DNA of 64,000 bases from Patescibacteria group bacterium (lineage in GTDB: Bacteria; Patescibacteriota; Minisyncoccia; Minisyncoccales; UBA5738), in contig JAKLGH010000005.1 in NCBI GenBank assembly GCA_022710775.1, positions 9,260 through 73,259 of the forward strand, given 5' to 3'. The translations under genes were made by a program, and so were the position numbers. This document shows positions 2,700 through 55,671 of the stretch, one piece after another. Each line of letters starts with the position of its first letter. Positions within the stretch are counted from its first letter, which is position 1. The notes under the pieces were generated by a model. That model was not told the origin of the DNA and did not search any database. It saw only the letters and a list, made by a program, of their open reading frames with translations.

Positions 2700-2728
2700 A
2701 AAATACCTAATTTTAACTCTTTTGTCAA
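2700..2728 (-). promoter_or_regulatory. candidate sigma70 promoter for tRNA-Val(GAC)/rplS
   Basis: On the minus strand: TTGACA (rc of 2723-2728), 17 nt spacer, TATTTT (rc of 2700-2705), about 45 nt upstream of the tRNA 5' end. Confidence 0.4.
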
Positions 2729-2829
2729 ACTAAATTCGGCTTCAAATGGGCGTGGATGGACTCGAACCATCGACCCCGACTTTATGACCCGAGTACGGGT
2801 CGCGTCATTTTACCAACAACTCTTTTAGG

Positions 2830-3049
2830 TGGGCGTGGATGGACTCGAACCATCGACCCCGACTTTATGATTCGCAGCAACGAATCTCGTCATTTTTTCA
2901 ACAACTCCTTAAGGTGGGCGTGGATGGACTCGAACCATCGACCCCGACTTTATAAGAGTCGTGCTCTGACCGACTGAGCTACACGCCCAGAATATAATAT
3001 TGAAAAAATGACATAAGAGTCGTGCTCTAACCGACTGAGCTACACGCCC
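2830..3049 (-). other. middle interrupted tRNA-Ile(UAU) copy B. 5' half is 3013-3049 and 3' half is 2830-2868; the 144-nt insert contains the intact copy C
   Basis: Same half sequences as copy A. Junction helix pairs 2998-3012 with 2889-2903 (15 bp, one G:U), with a hairpin at 2869-2886. Confidence 0.7.
2915..2988 (-). tRNA. tRNA-Ile (anticodon TAT), intact innermost copy C
   Basis: Canonical 74-nt cloverleaf: acceptor GGGCGTG/CACGCCC, D-arm GCTC-AGTCGGTCA-GAGC, anticodon stem CGACT/AGTCG, loop CTTATAA, variable GGGTC, T-arm GATGG-TTCGAGT-CCATC, discriminator A. Confidence 0.85.
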
Positions 3050-3111
3050 AGAATACACTGTTGGTAAAACGACATAAGAGTCGTGCTCTAACCGACTGAG
3101 CTACACGCCCT

Positions 3112-3146
3112 AAGAAAACCTGGCAGCAAAGCGTCTTGCTGCCAGG
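3112..3146 (-). terminator. rho-independent terminator downstream of ftsH
   Basis: 11-bp stem CCTGGCAGCAA (3119-3129) / TTGCTGCCAGG (3136-3146) with a 6-nt loop, followed on the minus strand by TTTTCTT. It abuts the 5' end of the nested tRNA locus. Confidence 0.65.
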
Positions 3147-12971: not shown

Positions 12972-13625
12972 TTAGCCTTTAATGACGATCCGTTTTTTTG
13001 ATTCTTTTTGCAGCTTAGGGATCCTGATCGTTAATATTCCGTCCCTCATTTGGGCATCGGTTTTTGAAGCGTCGACCTCGACCGGGAGTATGATTCTTCT
13101 TGAAAAAGCTCCCCAATAGCATTCTTGAATGAAATAATCGGCCGAATCGATTCGATAAGGGTTGTTTCTCTTGCCTTTGATGGTTAGAACATCGTCTTCT
13201 ATTAAGACATCCAAATCCTCTGTTTTGATGCCGGCAATAGCCGCCTGGACCACCAGATCGTTTTCCGTTTGGTACATATCGATTCCAAGCTGTCCTTCGG
13301 TTTCAAGCCACTCGCTATTCTCGGGTTGATCGTTTTCCGCGGGCTGATCGTCGATGGTTGGGATGCTTTTAACCTCAAGATTTCCCAGTTTTTTGTCCAA
13401 TTTTTTAGTTTTCTTAATTAAATTTTTCTTGGTTTGAGCCAAGCTTTTTGCAACAGGCTTTTCTTCTCTTTCTTCGTCTATGATTGCTTCGTCATTCTCT
13501 TCTTCGTTTTGATCTTCATCTTCATCTTCATTCTCGTCTTCGGAAAGCTGATTATCAACATTTTCGGTTTTTGTTTTACCGCTAGCTTTAGTGCCTTTTT
13601 TTAGTTTTTCCAAAAATGAAGACAT
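12972..13625 (-). CDS. Hsp20/alpha-crystallin family small heat-shock protein with long acidic N-terminal extension
   Basis: C-terminal alpha-crystallin domain (..LTIKGKR.., DGILTIRIPK), preceded by about 100 aa rich in E/D/N. Confidence 0.8.
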   Translation of the reverse strand: MSSFLEKLKKGTKASGKTKTENVDNQLSEDENEDEDEDQNEEENDEAIIDEEREEKPVAKSLAQTKKNLIKKTKKLDKKLGNLEVKSIPTIDDQPAENDQPENSEWLETEGQLGIDMYQTENDLVVQAAIAGIKTEDLDVLIEDDVLTIKGKRNNPYRIDSADYFIQECYWGAFSRRIILPVEVDASKTDAQMRDGILTIRIPKLQKESKKRIVIKG

Positions 13626-13784
13626 AATTTTGATTATTTTTGGCTAAGGGCTTACCCATGGAATATAAATTCGCAAGGATCCCTTATGTATTCCGCCCCG
13701 TATCTTGCGGGGGAGGAAACATTCTCCGGCCGCTCAACCGTGCCGGCCGGAATCACCCGGAAATATGCGATTAATTTGATTTTG

Positions 13785-33369: not shown

Positions 33370-34500
33370 ATGGCCATCAAAGAAAAACCGGTAGTAACAT
33401 TTGCGCGATGGGGGAATTATACGATTGCTTTTAAGGGGCTGTTCGAACAGCTTGGCATGAAAGTCATCCTGCCGCCAAAAACCAATCCGTCAATCGTTTC
33501 GGAAGGGGCTAAAATAGCGCCGGAGCTTTTTTGTTTTCCAATGAAGGTTACGCTTGGCGGCTATCTTGCCGTCATCAAGCAAGGAGTCAATACCATTTTA
33601 AGCATGCAGAACGTCGGCGGTTCCTGCCGCCAGAAATATTACGGATTGATCCAGGAAAAAGTTCTGAAAGACGGCGGATATGAAGTGAAATTTGTCGATT
33701 TTCGCGCGACGCCCCGCGATATCTATAGAATGATCAAAGAAAACAGCGATGCTAGCGATAAGCAGATTGCCGCGGCCTTTTATGTTTTCTTCGAAAAACT
33801 TTTCCTCATTGAAAAGATAGAAAAGATCGCCCAAAAACTGCGGCCGCGGGAGATAAAAAAAGGAGGTACGGAAAAAATCGTGCGCGAGGGCCTGGCAGCG
33901 ATAGAAAAAACAGCAAACCTTAAAGATCTTCTCAAAGCGAAAAAAGAGATTTTATCACTACTTAACAAGGTGGAAATAGATAAAAATAAAGAAGTGTTCA
34001 AAGTCGGGATGATGGGAGAGATCTACACGGTGACCGATCCGTCCATCAATTTCGATTTGGAAGCAAAGCTCGGGCTGGACGGTATTGAGATCCACCGGCA
34101 GATGAATGTAAGCTATCATATGAAAAAATTGCTGTTTCCCTGGATAGACTGGGCGATCCAGCGGCGGATCAATCATTATCTCAAATCTACGGTAGGCGGA
34201 CACGGCCGCGACGCAATCAGCGAAATGCTAGATTTCGTCAAAGAGGATTTTGACGGCGTGATCCAGATCTTGCCTTTCGGTTGCATGCCCGAGGTTACCG
34301 TGCGTCCGATCTTGGAAAAGATCAGGCAGGAGAATAACATTCCCTTTCTTTCTTTGTCGCTTGACGAGCAAGTAGCCGAGGCCGGAATCAATACGCGCCT
34401 GGAGGCTTTTGCCGACGTGGTTAAGAATTACCATTTTAAAAAACAAAAAAATCTTAAGCGGCAAGAAAACCTTAAACCCCTTAACGAAAAAATCATATGA
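33370..34500 (+). CDS. acyl-CoA dehydratase activase-associated (DUF2229-like) protein
   Basis: 376 aa. The N-terminus (..FARWGNYTIAFKGLFEQLGMKVILPP..ELFCFPMK) is as I remember for the partner domain of BcrAD/BadFG activases. 4-nt ATGA overlap with the next gene. Confidence 0.5.
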   Translation: MAIKEKPVVTFARWGNYTIAFKGLFEQLGMKVILPPKTNPSIVSEGAKIAPELFCFPMKVTLGGYLAVIKQGVNTILSMQNVGGSCRQKYYGLIQEKVLKDGGYEVKFVDFRATPRDIYRMIKENSDASDKQIAAAFYVFFEKLFLIEKIEKIAQKLRPREIKKGGTEKIVREGLAAIEKTANLKDLLKAKKEILSLLNKVEIDKNKEVFKVGMMGEIYTVTDPSINFDLEAKLGLDGIEIHRQMNVSYHMKKLLFPWIDWAIQRRINHYLKSTVGGHGRDAISEMLDFVKEDFDGVIQILPFGCMPEVTVRPILEKIRQENNIPFLSLSLDEQVAEAGINTRLEAFADVVKNYHFKKQKNLKRQENLKPLNEKII

Positions 34501-35465
34501 AATGCTATTTAGGAATCGATGTCGGGTCAATTTCCACTAACTTCGTATTGATAAACGAAGCCGGCGAAGTGGTTTACTCTCTTTATATCCGGACGGAAGG
34601 AAATCCGATCAAGGCCGTCCAGGCCGGGCTTACGATGCTTAAGCAAAGCCTTAAGGAAAAAAAGATAGAGGTTGAGGTTGCCGGAGTTGGAGCAACCGGT
34701 TCGGCGCGCTACTTGGTTGGCGCGATTACCGGCGCGGATCTTATGAAAAACGAGATTACGGCGCACGCCCGGGGAGCTTCCCATTTTGTGCCCGGGTTGC
34801 GCACGATCTTAGAGATCGGCGGCCAGGATTCCAAGATCATTATCCTGGAAGACGGGGCCAGCGTGGATTTCGCCATGAACCTTATCTGTTCGGCCGGAAC
34901 CGGCGCGTTTTTGGACGCCCAGGCCAACCGTTTAAAAATTCCCATCGAACAATTCGGTCCGCTTGCTTTAAAATCAAAAAAACCAACCCAGCTTGGAGCC
35001 CGGTGCACGGTATTTTGCGAATCAGACATGATCCATAAGCAGCAGATCGGCCATAAGACCGAGGATATCATCGCCGGTCTCTGCCACGGGTTGGTCCGCA
35101 ATTTCCTTTCCAGCGTGGCTAAAGGTAAAAATATCAAATCAAAGATCGTTTTCCAAGGCGGAGTTTCCGAAAATCCCGGCATTAAAAAAGCGTTCGAGGA
35201 CGCGCTGCAGGAAGAGGTGATCATTCCGCCCTACAATACCGTAATGGGAGCCGTGGGGTCGGCATTGCTGGTGCGCGATAATCCGCCCGAACATACCAGG
35301 TTTTTGGGCTTTGACATTACCGAACGCGATATCCGGTGCACGGCTTTCAATTGCGGCGGCTGCCCGAACAACTGCGAAGTGATCGAAGCGCGGATCGACA
35401 ATAAGATCGCGGCCCGGTGGGGCGACCGCTGCGGAAAGTGGTCCAGCCAAAAGCCCGAAATTTAA
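34497..35465 (+). CDS. BadF/BadG/BcrA/BcrD-type ATPase (CoA-substrate-specific enzyme activase, HgdC-like)
   Basis: Actin-fold phosphate motifs LGIDVGSISTN and EIGGQDSKII. Cys-rich C-terminus (CTAFNCGGCPNNC). Confidence 0.75.
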   Translation: MKCYLGIDVGSISTNFVLINEAGEVVYSLYIRTEGNPIKAVQAGLTMLKQSLKEKKIEVEVAGVGATGSARYLVGAITGADLMKNEITAHARGASHFVPGLRTILEIGGQDSKIIILEDGASVDFAMNLICSAGTGAFLDAQANRLKIPIEQFGPLALKSKKPTQLGARCTVFCESDMIHKQQIGHKTEDIIAGLCHGLVRNFLSSVAKGKNIKSKIVFQGGVSENPGIKKAFEDALQEEVIIPPYNTVMGAVGSALLVRDNPPEHTRFLGFDITERDIRCTAFNCGGCPNNCEVIEARIDNKIAARWGDRCGKWSSQKPEI

Positions 35466-35595
35466 TTAATTTGTAGACCCCGGGACAAGCCCTTGGAACA
35501 AATTAATGAAGAGTCCAGAGGAAACATCCTCTGGTCGCCGCCCGGGGGTTCGTACCCCGGGAGGCGAAATACCGATAGAAAAATATAAATTCGAT
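35465..35595 (+). repeat. structured intergenic element, copy 1 (131 nt)
   Basis: Nearly identical to 37225-37354 (one substitution, one 1-nt indel). Three predicted stem-loops. Confidence 0.85.
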
Positions 35596-35622
35596 TTAAC
35601 AACCGTTAAGAAAAAACAAAAC

Positions 35623-36029: not shown

Positions 36030-36058
36030 TTGACAAAAGAGGTTAAATAGTGTATAAT
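36030..36058 (+). promoter_or_regulatory. consensus sigma70 promoter
   Basis: TTGACA (36030-36035), 17 nt spacer, TATAAT (36053-36058). Confidence 0.7.
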
Positions 36059-36834: not shown

Positions 36835-36863
36835 TTGACAAATTATTAAATTTATGCTATAAT
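36835..36863 (+). promoter_or_regulatory. consensus sigma70 promoter
   Basis: TTGACA (36835-36840), 17 nt spacer, TATAAT (36858-36863). Confidence 0.7.
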
Positions 36864-37147: not shown

Positions 37148-37176
37148 TTGACAAAAAAAACAAAAAGAGGTAAATT
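37148..37176 (+). promoter_or_regulatory. candidate sigma70 promoter of the ATP synthase operon
   Basis: TTGACA (37148-37153), 17 nt spacer, TAAATT (37171-37176). This predicts a roughly 170-nt leader containing repeat copy 2. Confidence 0.5.
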
Positions 37177-37224
37177 TTTCTTGAACCCGTATTGGGTGTT
37201 GCTTTTTTTGAATGGATGATTTTT

Positions 37225-37354
37225 ATTAATTTGTAGACCCCGGGACAAGCCCTTGGAACAAATTAATGAGGAGTCCAGAGGAAACATCCTCTGGTCGCCG
37301 CCCGGGGGTCGTACCCCGGGAGGCGAAATACCGATAGAAAAATATAAATTCGAT
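37225..37354 (+). repeat. structured intergenic element, copy 2 (130 nt), forming the atpB leader
   Basis: Nearly identical to 35465-35595. It ends at the A of the atpB start codon region (ATG at 37353). Confidence 0.85.
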
Positions 37355-38060
37355 GGAAGAAATAGCCGTTGCCGCTATGAAGATTTCTCAAATCGGAGGG
37401 TTGGTCATTACCAATACCTTCTTTTGGACTCTGACCATCACCGCCATGCTTATTGCCAGTATGGTTTTTATTTTCCGGGAGCCCCGGCTGGTTCCGACCA
37501 GAACCCAGAACTTTTTTGAGTTCATTATCGAGAGTTTGATGGGTTTTACTGATTCCATTACCGGTTCGCGTGAAAAAACCCAAGAGATATTTCCGCTGGC
37601 CGCGACGCTTTTTTTGCTGATCTGGTCGGTAAATCTGATAGAACTGGTACCCGGAGTGGGGGTTTTTCCGATGTTGCGGTCTCCGAGTTCGGATTTGAAC
37701 TTTACGATCGCTTTGGCGGTCATTTCGATCGTTTCGGTCAATTACTATTCGATAAAACATCTTGGGATAGGCAAATATTTGGGGAAATTCTTCAATTTTA
37801 AGAATCCGATCCAGTTTTTCGTTGGGATATTGGAGTTTGTCGGAGAATTCAGTAAAGTTATTTCCCTGTCGATGCGGTTGTTCGGAAATTTGTTCGCCGG
37901 CGAGGTTTTGCTGATTATTATCTCCAGTTTATGCGCTTATCTGCTCCCTTTGCCGTTTCTGGCGCTGGAAGTGCTGGTTACTTTCATCCAGGCGCTGGTT
38001 TTTGCCACTCTCACCGTGGTGTTTTATTCGATAGCGACCATTGAGATGGAACATGGATGA
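37353..38060 (+). CDS. atpB: F0F1 ATP synthase subunit a
   Basis: 235 aa, 5-6 TM helices, conserved LSMRLFGNLFAGE (essential Arg). Confidence 0.92.
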   Translation: MEEIAVAAMKISQIGGLVITNTFFWTLTITAMLIASMVFIFREPRLVPTRTQNFFEFIIESLMGFTDSITGSREKTQEIFPLAATLFLLIWSVNLIELVPGVGVFPMLRSPSSDLNFTIALAVISIVSVNYYSIKHLGIGKYLGKFFNFKNPIQFFVGILEFVGEFSKVISLSMRLFGNLFAGEVLLIIISSLCAYLLPLPFLALEVLVTFIQALVFATLTVVFYSIATIEMEHG

Positions 38061-53229: not shown

Positions 53230-55443
53230 TTATCCGATTTTGTACCTTTTTATCGAGAGTGAGTTGAGAATCACGCTGACGGAGGATAAAGACATTGCGG
53301 CCGCCGCCCACATCGGATTCAAGAGCCAGCCGGTAAACGGATAAAGAACCCCCGCGGCGATCAGCACTCCCAAAATATTATAAAAGAAAGCCCAAAATAG
53401 GTTCTGCTTTATTTTATTTAAAGTAAAGGCGCTTAGCCTTATTGCTTCAACGACATCGTTTAGGTTGTCTTTTATCAAAACCATATCTCCGGTCTCGATC
53501 GCGATATCAGTGCCCGAGCCCAAGGCAATTCCAAGATCCGATTGAGCCAGGGCCGGCGCGTCGTTTATTCCGTCGCCGACCATGGCGACGACATGGCCTT
53601 GTTTCTGGAGTTTTTTTATTTTTTCGGATTTTTCCCGCGGCAAAACTTCGGCGAAAACATTTTCGATTCCGGCTTCTTTGGCTATGGCGATCGCCGCGCT
53701 CTTGTTGCCTCCCGAGACCATAATGACGGTTTTTCCCATTTTTTTAAGAGCCAAAACTGCGTCTTTGGAATTTTTTTTAAGAACGTCGGAAACGGCGATT
53801 AATCCGGCCGCTTTGCCGTTGTAGGCCAGGATCATTACGGTTTTCCCCTGGTTTTCCAAGGCCGAAATTTTTTGCTCAAGCGCTTTGATTTCGATCCGGC
53901 GCTCGGCCATTAATTTTTTTGATCCGAACAATAACGGTTTGCCGCGGAAAGCGGCTGATATTCCTTTGCCGGGAGCTGCTTGGAACTCCCGGACTTTAGG
54001 GATTTCCAAATTTCTGCGTTTCGCTTCGGATACAATGGCGGCTGCCAGGGGATGTTCGTAATTCATTTCAAGAGCGGCCGCCAGCTTCAATATTTTATCG
54101 GAAGATTTTTCGTCAAAAATGTCGGTAACTTCCGGTTCTCCGACAGTAAGCGTCCCGGCCTTATCGAAAATAACGGTATCGATTTTACTCGCTATTTCAA
54201 GCGCTTTGCCGTTTTTGACCAGAATGCCTATCTTGGCGGCCAGGCCGGAGCCGACTATAACGGCGGTTGGAGCGGCTAGTCCAAGGACGCAAGGGCAGGC
54301 GATGACCAAAACCGAGATGAAAGCGGTAAGCGCGAAAGCAAAAGATTTTCCAAGAGCCAGCCAAACCACTAAAGCCAGGATGGCAATAACTAAAATTCCA
54401 GGTACGAAATAATAAGCCGCTCTATCGGCGATAAGCTGGATCGGCGCTTTTGATTCCATTGCCTCCCGGACAGTAGCAATGATCTGTGAGAGGACGGTGT
54501 TTTTGCCAACTTTCGTTGCCCTGACGGTCAAGGCTCCGACTTGGTTGGTTGTTGCTCCAATAACTATGTCGCCGGGTTTCTTAATCAACGGCATGTTTTC
54601 TCCGGTTATCGCTCTCTCATCAACTGAAGATAATCCTTCACTCACAATTCCGTCCACTGGGAATTTCTGGCCCGGCCGGACAAAAATCAGGTCTCCGGTT
54701 TTGACTTCAGAGACAGGCATTGTTTTTTGAAAGCCGCCTACGATTACGGTTGCGCTCTTAGGCTGCAATCCAATAAGTTCTTTTATCGCATCGCTGGTTT
54801 TTGCTTTGGCGGCCGCTTCAAGATATTTACCCAAGGAAATAAAAATCAGGATCATTGTGACGCTTTCAAAGTAGAGATGTCCGGCCGAATGGCCAGGAGA
54901 GAACCAAGCCAAAAGCAATATGCTCGCGCTGTATAGATATGCCGCGACAGTGCCGATTTCGATCAATGAATCCATATTCGGTTTTCTGCTTATCAGGCCG
55001 CGAAAGCCTGAAGCATAGAGCGGCGCGTTTAATGACATTATTGCGGTTGAGATGAAAAACTGGGCCAGTGCCAGCACTTTCATTTCAAACGCCGGCACCG
55101 GAAGTCCGATAAGGGGAGAAGCGGACATATAGATTGCCGGCAGGCCGAGCATAAATGAAAGGACAAATCGCCTTTTTAGCGTTTCATTTTCGAATTGTTT
55201 TTTATTTTCAATTGAATTTTCCTTTCTGTCTGCAATCATCTTGGCATTGAAGCCGATTTCTTTTATCGTTTTGATTATTTTTTCAGCAGTTGCCGATTTT
55301 TCATCAAATTCGGCATAAAGTTTTCCGTTGGAAAAATCGACACTAGCGGATGCCACTCCCGGTATTTTTTTTATGGCTCGTTCGATGCTGGCAGCATAGG
55401 AAGCGCAATTCATGCCTGAGACTTTGAAAGTATTTTTGACCAT
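53230..55443 (-). CDS. copA: copper-translocating P1B-type ATPase
   Basis: N-terminal HMA domain, TM CPC motif (IACPCVLGLAAP), phosphorylation site FDKAGTLT, SEHPL-like EHPLAAA, and GDGINDAP. The ATG at 55443 is preferred over the ORF reaching 55647. Confidence 0.9.
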   Translation of the reverse strand: MVKNTFKVSGMNCASYAASIERAIKKIPGVASASVDFSNGKLYAEFDEKSATAEKIIKTIKEIGFNAKMIADRKENSIENKKQFENETLKRRFVLSFMLGLPAIYMSASPLIGLPVPAFEMKVLALAQFFISTAIMSLNAPLYASGFRGLISRKPNMDSLIEIGTVAAYLYSASILLLAWFSPGHSAGHLYFESVTMILIFISLGKYLEAAAKAKTSDAIKELIGLQPKSATVIVGGFQKTMPVSEVKTGDLIFVRPGQKFPVDGIVSEGLSSVDERAITGENMPLIKKPGDIVIGATTNQVGALTVRATKVGKNTVLSQIIATVREAMESKAPIQLIADRAAYYFVPGILVIAILALVVWLALGKSFAFALTAFISVLVIACPCVLGLAAPTAVIVGSGLAAKIGILVKNGKALEIASKIDTVIFDKAGTLTVGEPEVTDIFDEKSSDKILKLAAALEMNYEHPLAAAIVSEAKRRNLEIPKVREFQAAPGKGISAAFRGKPLLFGSKKLMAERRIEIKALEQKISALENQGKTVMILAYNGKAAGLIAVSDVLKKNSKDAVLALKKMGKTVIMVSGGNKSAAIAIAKEAGIENVFAEVLPREKSEKIKKLQKQGHVVAMVGDGINDAPALAQSDLGIALGSGTDIAIETGDMVLIKDNLNDVVEAIRLSAFTLNKIKQNLFWAFFYNILGVLIAAGVLYPFTGWLLNPMWAAAAMSLSSVSVILNSLSIKRYKIG

Positions 55444-55671
55444 GTTTTGTGCCAAATAATTTTTGCCGGTAAAGATTTGATCAGCGGTAAAATTTATTAT
55501 TGTGTAGATTAAGGGTAAGCCCGGGTAATAAAATATCGAGGATTCCAAAGAAGGATCTCCTTTGGCAGTCAGGCGTGGTTTAATGCCACGCCGGACGAAA
55601 AACCTCGGGAAAATAAATATTTTACATAATTGATTATACCACTTCAAATCCGATTTTTTGTTTTGTCTTAA

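Follow-up and report, generated by a model that had tools for sequence, protein, structure and literature searches.

What is a strongly folded, 130-nt non-coding element doing in front of an ATP synthase operon, and why does it recur nearby? The element lies in a 64,000-nt stretch of a Patescibacteria genome (contig JAKLGH010000005.1, positions 9,260 to 73,259 of the forward strand; hereafter the window), at 35465-35595 and again at 37225-37354, directly before atpB. An earlier note, made from the letters alone, described it as a structured element present twice, serving as the operon's leader and having the layout of a switch or attenuator. Our analysis indicates instead, at a probability of about 0.8, that the element is a single member of a new family of structured, interspersed repeats, non-autonomous and mobile, of the ERIC, BOX, REP-BIME or MITE (miniature inverted-repeat transposable element) kind, multiplied in this Candidatus Paceibacterota genome and its relatives. 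The repeat is multi-copy and is present or absent at orthologous sites; it forms a discrete AT...AT unit, almost always after a T-run (TTTAT), has landed in an open reading frame (ORF) and breaks assemblies. With no sequence or Rfam match, the family is new while its kind is familiar.

A dispersed family of folded repeats

The reported near-identity of the two copies holds in alignment: 35465-35595 and 37225-37354 differ by one A/G substitution (35510 versus 37270) and one T indel in the loop of hairpin 3, giving 98.5% identity at a spacing of 1,760 bp. Identity runs from about 35461/37221 to 35596/37355, and the flanking sequences of the two copies are unrelated to each other. A 33-mer of the repeat core occurs twice in the window, compared with zero occurrences in 100 shuffles. 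The element is also non-coding, as had been claimed: the indel shifts the frame between the copies, no consistent ORF was found across repeat copies, and six-frame translation of the element gave zero matches at E<=10 among 5.8 billion proteins. The count of two, however, applies to the near-identical copies alone. A covariance model, built from six copies and then run on the window and on other contigs, returned four copies in the window, all on the plus strand (37216-37359, 165 bits; 35456-35600, 163 bits; 55487-55630, 108 bits; 13623-13780, 23 bits, E 0.005), with the following units.

35465-35595, plus strand: repeat copy 1, short form, 131 nt, AT at start and end (covariance model 163 bits); placed after the activase stop codon and before the DUF498 gene
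37225-37354, plus strand: repeat copy 2, 130 nt (covariance model 165 bits); inserted in the atpB leader, its final two bases being the AT of the atpB start codon
55496-55627, plus strand: repeat copy 3, 132 nt, old and diverged (covariance model 108 bits); antisense to its neighbours, upstream of the minus-strand P-type (HMA) ATPase gene
13623-13780, plus strand: probable repeat copy 4, strongly diverged, with an extra hairpin module (22.9 bits, E 0.005); fills the spacer that separates two minus-strand genes, prsW-like and hsp20

Copy 3 retains about 60% identity and maintains all three hairpins via compensatory changes; it sits between two minus-strand genes. Copy 4 has a BLAST match of 51 nt (86%) to a module of a long variant. 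Beyond the window, contigs and loci compared with it are numbered L0xx, the L-number contigs being taken from metagenome assemblies. A 20-mer scan of metagenome contigs recovered diverged relatives, namely a short copy in L010 and long copies with extra hairpins in L006, L008 and L009. Contigs such as L028 are indicated to come from the organism of the window, since its locus and the murC locus occur together in metagenome-assembled genome (MAG) GCA_035914655.1 and in assembly ERZ27257455. Further copies in this organism lie upstream of both ligT and gyrB, just behind a deoC-like gene, and in the interval from murC to a histidine kinase gene. On the same-organism contigs the covariance model detected two copies in L028 and two in L031, one of the latter cut by the contig end and situated in the same gyrB-deoC stretch as that of L008; a separate left flank occurs in L003. 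In total, about 92 kb of the host organism's DNA holds at least nine distinct copies. At least nine unrelated genes adjoin copies, including DUF498, murC, ligT, gyrB, histidine kinase, P-type ATPase and hsp20, and one copy sits inside a methyltransferase ORF. The homologues sought beyond the original pair thus exist, both in the window and on other contigs.

Other scans delimited the family. A contig scan with a 23-mer across hairpins 2 and 3 gave 0 matches, because this stretch differs between subfamilies; a conserved 19-mer recovered one true partial copy, in a Saccharibacteria MAG (L011), and two chance matches. The viral contig scan returned 0 matches, and about 70 kb of DNA of more distant relatives yielded no copy.

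RNAfold returns exactly the three hairpins that had been predicted (35465-35507, 35515-35534 and 35535-35567), at -53.7 kcal/mol and z = -5.4, a stability that none of the shuffles reached. Folding of the reverse complement is just as good (-55.2 kcal/mol). Along the unit, P1 is followed by a purine-rich junction (GAGGAG), P2, P3 and an A-rich tail; in copy 1 coordinates these parts are as follows.

35465-35507, plus strand: hairpin P1, from the fold, with AT-rich basal stem ATTAATTTGT/ACAAATTAAT, an internal loop holding a conserved G(T/C)AGA, and a GC-rich distal stem; compensatory changes
35515-35534, plus strand: hairpin P2, from the fold, CCAGAGGA-AACA-TCCTCTGG; covaries in the 55.5-kb copy and in L034
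35535-35567, plus strand: hairpin P3, from the fold, 12 bp, GC-rich, with a G/A mismatch that is the site of an extra module in long variants
35568-35595, plus strand: A-rich, largely unpaired tail of about 28 nt, ending ...TATAAATTCGAT; kept in all copies, including the partial L011 copy

The basic unit measures about 130 nt, and variants of 160-226 nt carry inserted modules, which are simple hairpins placed at three sites: after P1, before P2 and in the P3 mismatch. The covariation check that had been proposed found compensatory changes. Across an alignment of 10 distinct sequences, fitted to the covariance model so that its pairing figures lean towards structure, 87.4% of cells are paired, versus 79.7% in shuffles, and 17 of 37 pairs have changed on both sides, versus 6.4 in shuffles (0/500 reach 17) and 3-8 in slid controls. 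The non-coding, structured nature of the element, with covariation, is confirmed. An outer helix, 'P0', joining the 5' flank with the tail was dropped, its 5' strand being native flank in copy 1 and L010. G-U pairs as a sign of a sense-strand RNA were likewise dropped upon a full count (19 G-U versus 15 A-C).

The repeats also affect assembly and annotation. Contigs often end within the element (L002, L004, L006, L008, L032 and L033). In L003 (1-150) an unknown or foreign left flank is joined to atpB, and L031 (10371-10670) reads murC-element-gyrB where L028 (11445-11785), L029 and L030 read murC-element-histidine kinase. Either the assemblies are chimeric across the repeat at such alternative joins, or copies have truly recombined within the population. 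That these repeats break metagenome assemblies and yield alternative joins matters for the binning of candidate phyla radiation (CPR) MAGs and for synteny claims. Gene callers are misled as well: public calls give the P-type (HMA) ATPase as 53230-55647 on the minus strand, with a TTG start at 55647 and 805 aa, reading through the copy at 55496-55627; since the HMA domain starts at ATG 55443 (MVKNTFKVSGMNC...), this call probably has 68 codons too many. Near the murC copy, a 37-aa hydrophobic ORF overlaps the murC 3' end (MSKFLDTVTVIFYIVVLFILLMANLPAVKSVISFILD; L028 11328-11441, L034 7091-7204); it probably encodes a real small membrane protein, judging from its retention in a relative with 78% MurC identity.

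Insertion sites, unit ends and orientation

Presence and absence at orthologous sites, with precise boundaries, distinguish the window organism from L014, L015, L034 and L035. The clearest case is the atp locus of L035 (AtpB 89% identical), which shares the promoter, the leader hairpin and ...TTGCTTTTTTTGAATGGATGATTTT, and then runs straight into ATGGAGGAA. It constitutes a clean empty site, reading ...GATGATTTT and then ATGGAGG, at a point where the window holds 129 extra bases (37224-37352). L014, fully syntenic with the window (AtpB 95%), has a 73-nt activase-DUF498 spacer without the element and none upstream of atpB either; L015 (AtpB 83%) likewise has none upstream of atpB. L034, from the same sample as L014, has no murC-kinase copy and carries its own copy between ligT and murC. 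That copy ends ...AAATTCG|ATGAAG on the murC start codon, where L028, from the window organism, has an 18-nt spacer. The unit thus sits twice on a start codon, that of atpB in the window and that of murC in a relative, which is explained by the many start codons here that read TTTATG.

In L010 the element splits a SAM-methyltransferase ORF homologous to a window gene. Deleting the element with one AT kept restores ...SDKIDLFLRLVEKGGSVLDAGCGPG in frame, and removal of both ATs fails to do so. The reading frame of this L010 gene (11044-11810) shifts at two or more additional points, following ...GCGPG and ...QTPF; the gene is either a decaying pseudogene or affected by homopolymer assembly errors.

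The unit ends are consistent across these sites. Every complete copy has AT at its start and AT at its end, and the right end reads ...AAWTCGAT in most. TTT(A/T) closes the left flank in eight of nine distinct cases, and seven of nine left junctions read TTTAT. As to orientation, 15 of the 16 4-kb bins of the window have a positive GC skew, among them the two minus-gene bins that hold copies 3 and 4, and all four window copies lie on the G-rich strand. The sense strand of the element coincides with the G-rich (leading) strand in 6/6 independent contigs, including the two copies antisense to local genes. Relative to transcription, eight copies are sense and two antisense (n=10).

The atp leader and the rival explanations

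The description of copy 2 as the leader of the atp operon stands as to position, the copy lying inside the atpB 5' untranslated region (UTR) downstream of a promoter-like site, but the leaders of three relatives have no element. The native parts of this region are as follows.

37148-37176, plus strand: native atp promoter-like site TTGACA-N17-TAAATT, outside the repeat, found by promoter scan; conserved in L014, L015 and L035
37185-37223, plus strand: native atp leader with AACCC..GGGT hairpin, T-run and GAATGGATGATTTT; common to the relatives up to the insertion point
37353-38060, plus strand: atpB (F0 subunit a), first gene of the atp operon; homologues 235 aa, 100% coverage; an identical AtpB bears the NCBI name Candidatus Paceibacterota bacterium

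The native leader is short, about 45 nt, with about 20 nt from the hairpin and T-run to the ATG. Since the unit has landed on a TTTATG start-codon context, the atp copy is read as an insertion into this pre-existing leader, whose 5' UTR it extends to about 170 nt. The native promoter would now transcribe three stable hairpins and an A-rich unpaired tail of about 30 nt before the atpB AUG; any effect on atp expression would be a by-product, acting through transcript stability, processing or start-codon context. Two smaller points of the earlier note are borne out: copy 2 ends at the atpB ATG (37353), its last two bases being the AT, and no Shine-Dalgarno sequence is present there. One is lacking before atpB even in the uninserted relative, so its absence in the window is native and no feature of the element. 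The leader hairpin itself, AACCC(N5)GGGT followed by GTTG(A/C)TTTTTTT (37185-37210), directly follows the predicted transcription start and is retained by L014, L015 and L035 (AtpB 83-95%); it is terminator- or attenuator-like.

The proposed switch, in which CCCGGGG would choose between two partners, does not survive energy calculation. Forcing the alternative pairing (35478-84 with 35541-47) gives -35.2 rather than -53.7 kcal/mol, which is 18.5 worse, at an ensemble probability of about 0, and a sequence reading of the diverged copy at 55496-55627 did not reveal the complementary heptamers. No sense-strand terminator or Shine-Dalgarno-sequestering platform was found after the element. The statement that it matches no known riboswitch class agrees with Rfam 15, in which only tRNAs reach the gathering threshold in the window and the element has no match at a permissive threshold either. 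The best sub-threshold matches, Clostridiales-2 (19.9 bits, threshold 58.6) and FMN (18.6 bits, threshold 66.2), were rejected, as generic hairpins alone were matched. ARAGORN found no tRNA- or tmRNA-like gene in the element, despite a T-loop-like P3 loop, and a hammerhead or other ribozyme, considered for UGAGGA...GAAA motifs, was set aside with no Rfam match at E<=10. An outward promoter in the tail (TATAAAT), producing a leaderless atpB mRNA, is a far-fetched option: the scan calls no sense promoter and the spacing to the ATG is too short.

How, then, do the rival explanations compare? A riboswitch or attenuator leader that controls the ATP synthase operon via mutually exclusive CCCGGGG pairings would suit the place of copy 2 between the atp promoter and the atpB ATG, the very stable and covarying structure, and the existence of both complementary heptamers. 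We regard it as very improbable given the energetic penalty and the missing downstream platform just described, the three relatives whose atp leaders have no element (AtpB 95%, 89% and 83%, one a clean empty site), and the wide distribution of the copies, which adjoin at least nine unrelated genes, sit inside a methyltransferase ORF and in two instances are antisense. A false lead, that of a new ATP synthase riboswitch at this leader, is thereby removed. Still less credible, and practically negligible, is the idea that a segment was recently duplicated on the spot and belongs to no larger family: it would account for two copies 98.5% identical and 1,760 bp apart, but diverged copies occur elsewhere in the window, on other contigs and in other organisms, and the flanks of the two copies are unrelated. 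Two further schemes were rejected. An integron attC site or gene cassette does not fit the 1.6 kb between the two copies, with its three genes (DUF498, a 218-aa ORF and a 68-aa ORF) of which two have perfect TTGACA-N17-TATAAT promoters, with no GTTRRRY ends and no integrase; a template/variable repeat pair of a diversity-generating retroelement does not fit two intergenic copies differing by one A/G and one indel, with no reverse transcriptase in the Pfam lists.

More serious is a host-domesticated RNA module that, however it spread, would now act in cis in transcripts, for instance by stabilising 5' ends, marking sites for RNase III/E/J processing or punctuating operons, with the unpaired A-rich tail serving as a ribosome landing site. 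Eight of ten copies are sense to flanking genes, in UTRs or intra-operon spacers; two are fused to start codons of essential genes, whose expression must persist; old copies retain their hairpins; and ERIC, Correia, BIME and BOX elements provide precedents (PMC3049150). On the other hand, the sense strand has no excess of G-U over A-C, two copies are antisense, and relatives do well without the element at the same sites. Domestication is a possible account that we rank well behind mobility. In another account, a host protein (nucleoid-associated protein, gyrase or replication-linked factor) would bind the repeats as an array at the DNA level, in the way suggested for BIMEs, and hairpins or cruciforms would need no transposition to be explained, nor would the strand bias; both strands fold equally well, wobble pairs show no strand signal, orientation is uniform with respect to GC skew, and the conserved G(T/C)AGA beside the GC hairpin resembles the GTAG and palindrome of REPs. 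This account leaves presence/absence polymorphism, the ORF insertion and the near-identical young copies unexplained unless a spreading mechanism is added, and we consider it improbable.

A non-autonomous mobile repeat remains the preferred reading, and several points weigh against it. The Pfam lists, which cover most of the window and other same-organism loci, contain no transposase, reverse transcriptase or recombinase, so the mobilising activity is hypothetical. Terminal inverted repeats are weak and not conserved between subfamilies: for the ATTAATTTG subfamily the ends agree at 7/9 bases, and ATCCAGA-type units (L010, L028a) show no match. Either a core of about 127 nt was inserted and 2 bp (AT) were duplicated, or the inserted unit has 129 nt and lies 3' of TTTAT, the junction sequences fitting both. 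Compensatory changes keep the hairpins of the two old copies, which could point to a role for the host rather than to plain parasitism. The counts of G-U cells (19) and of A-C cells (15) are roughly the same, singling out neither an RNA strand nor DNA; as to which of sense RNA, antisense RNA or DNA carries the acting structure, the pair counts favour none. The strand bias comes from a small sample (six contigs), and a genome-wide density of about 1 per 10 kb is an extrapolation from the roughly 100 kb of genome covered.

As to how such a repeat might move, the hairpins would be retained because a mobilising machinery, or a host protein or RNase, would need them. The leading-strand location of copies, the lack of conserved terminal inverted repeats and a target of 4-5 nt point to single-strand, hairpin-recognising transposition (HUH/Y1; IS200/IS605-derived or REP/RAYT), a mechanism we put forward only tentatively. 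A more specific version, a CPR/Patescibacteria-specific, hairpin-guided single-strand (HUH/RAYT-like) element that targets TTTAT on the lagging-strand template and acts as a portable 5'-UTR module, seems unlikely to us. If true, a structured, A-rich cassette repeatedly replaces the bases before the AUG of essential genes (atpB, murC), rewiring expression in ultra-small genomes.

Known repeat families and other features of the window

Patescibacteria have very small genomes, which are regarded as containing little mobile DNA. Against this background the present genome has dense structured mobile repeats, about 1 per 10 kb of DNA covered. Its start-codon fusions also constitute a natural experiment on translation start in organisms that here largely lack Shine-Dalgarno sequences. 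A large 2024 survey of MITEs does not mention Patescibacteria.

Among characterized families, ERIC elements have longer variants that arise through internal insertions at fixed sites. ERIC/IRU elements of enterobacteria are imperfect palindromes of about 127 nt in transcribed intergenic regions, in either orientation, and can alter mRNA stability (PMC3049150, PMC3184786). The present repeat resembles them in size, in lying in either orientation to genes and in having longer variants via internal insertions; it differs in showing no sequence similarity, in being a three-hairpin unit rather than one long hairpin, and in occurring in Patescibacteria. BOX elements of Streptococcus pneumoniae consist of boxA, a variable number of boxB and boxC, span 67-637 bp, and are folded, intergenic and co-transcribed, with extra modules that fold independently (PMC3049150). 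Modularity and strong folding are shared, whereas the modules here are single hairpins at three internal positions with no tandem array, and no terminal-repeat similarity to known insertion sequences (IS) was found. Correia elements of Neisseria are multi-copy, non-coding MITEs of 100-160 bp that duplicate TA, lie in or near genes, are co-transcribed and can change expression (PMC3184786, PMC10969869). Size, copy number, non-coding nature and insertion beside or inside genes are alike, but Correia elements have 26-bp terminal inverted repeats, and the present repeat has 7/9 bases in one subfamily and none in another.

REP/BIME-REPIN elements, mobilised by RAYT, and IS200/IS605-derived PATEs have an orientation tied to the lagging-strand template; their hairpins are recognised, they have no long terminal inverted repeats, and they use a short specific target without classical duplication (PMC5027513, PMC3201880). 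The present repeat shares with them the hairpins, a preference for a short target, the replication-linked orientation (small sample) and the absence of long terminal inverted repeats. REPs carry a conserved GTAG next to their palindrome, and here a conserved G(T/C)AG stands beside the GC hairpin. Unlike the IS200/IS605 group, no Y1/HUH transposase appears in the Pfam lists of the DNA covered (about 100 kb of genome), and hairpin-to-end distances differ from those of IS608. The AT at both ends could also be a 2-bp duplication, which the REP/PATE group does not make.

The gene context of copies 1 and 2 is as the earlier note gave it. Copy 1 begins at the TAA of a BcrAD/BadFG-type activase gene (34497-35465), which together with a DUF2229/HGD-D gene lies on its 5' side, and ends 27 nt before the DUF498 gene (ATG 35623), called MTH938-like in that note. 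DUF498, the 218-aa ORF and the 68-aa ORF follow, and 3' of copy 2 come atpB and the remaining F-type ATPase operon. Perfect TTGACA-N17-TATAAT promoters, at 36030-36058 and 36835-36863, precede the 218-aa and 68-aa hypothetical genes; the 68-aa gene is missing from L035.

Two other arrays were observed in the window. At about 9.3-11.7 kb, five tandem paralogous genes with a T4SS_pilin domain repeat with a period of 408 nt; in one public MAG this array differs by about 100 nt. A tRNA-Ile(UAU) gene (2913-2988) lies within a nested array on the minus strand (window 2712-3134), in which the 5' half, up to the anticodon loop, occurs three times in tandem and the 3' half then likewise appears in three copies. 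Between the outer halves, the spacers complement each other (GTCGTTTTACCAACA with TGTTGGTAAAATGAC; GTCATTTTTTCAA with TTGAAAAAATGAC), producing a Russian-doll layout that may be a relic of repeated insertion and excision in the anticodon loop or else reflect a split or intron organisation of an unusual sort.

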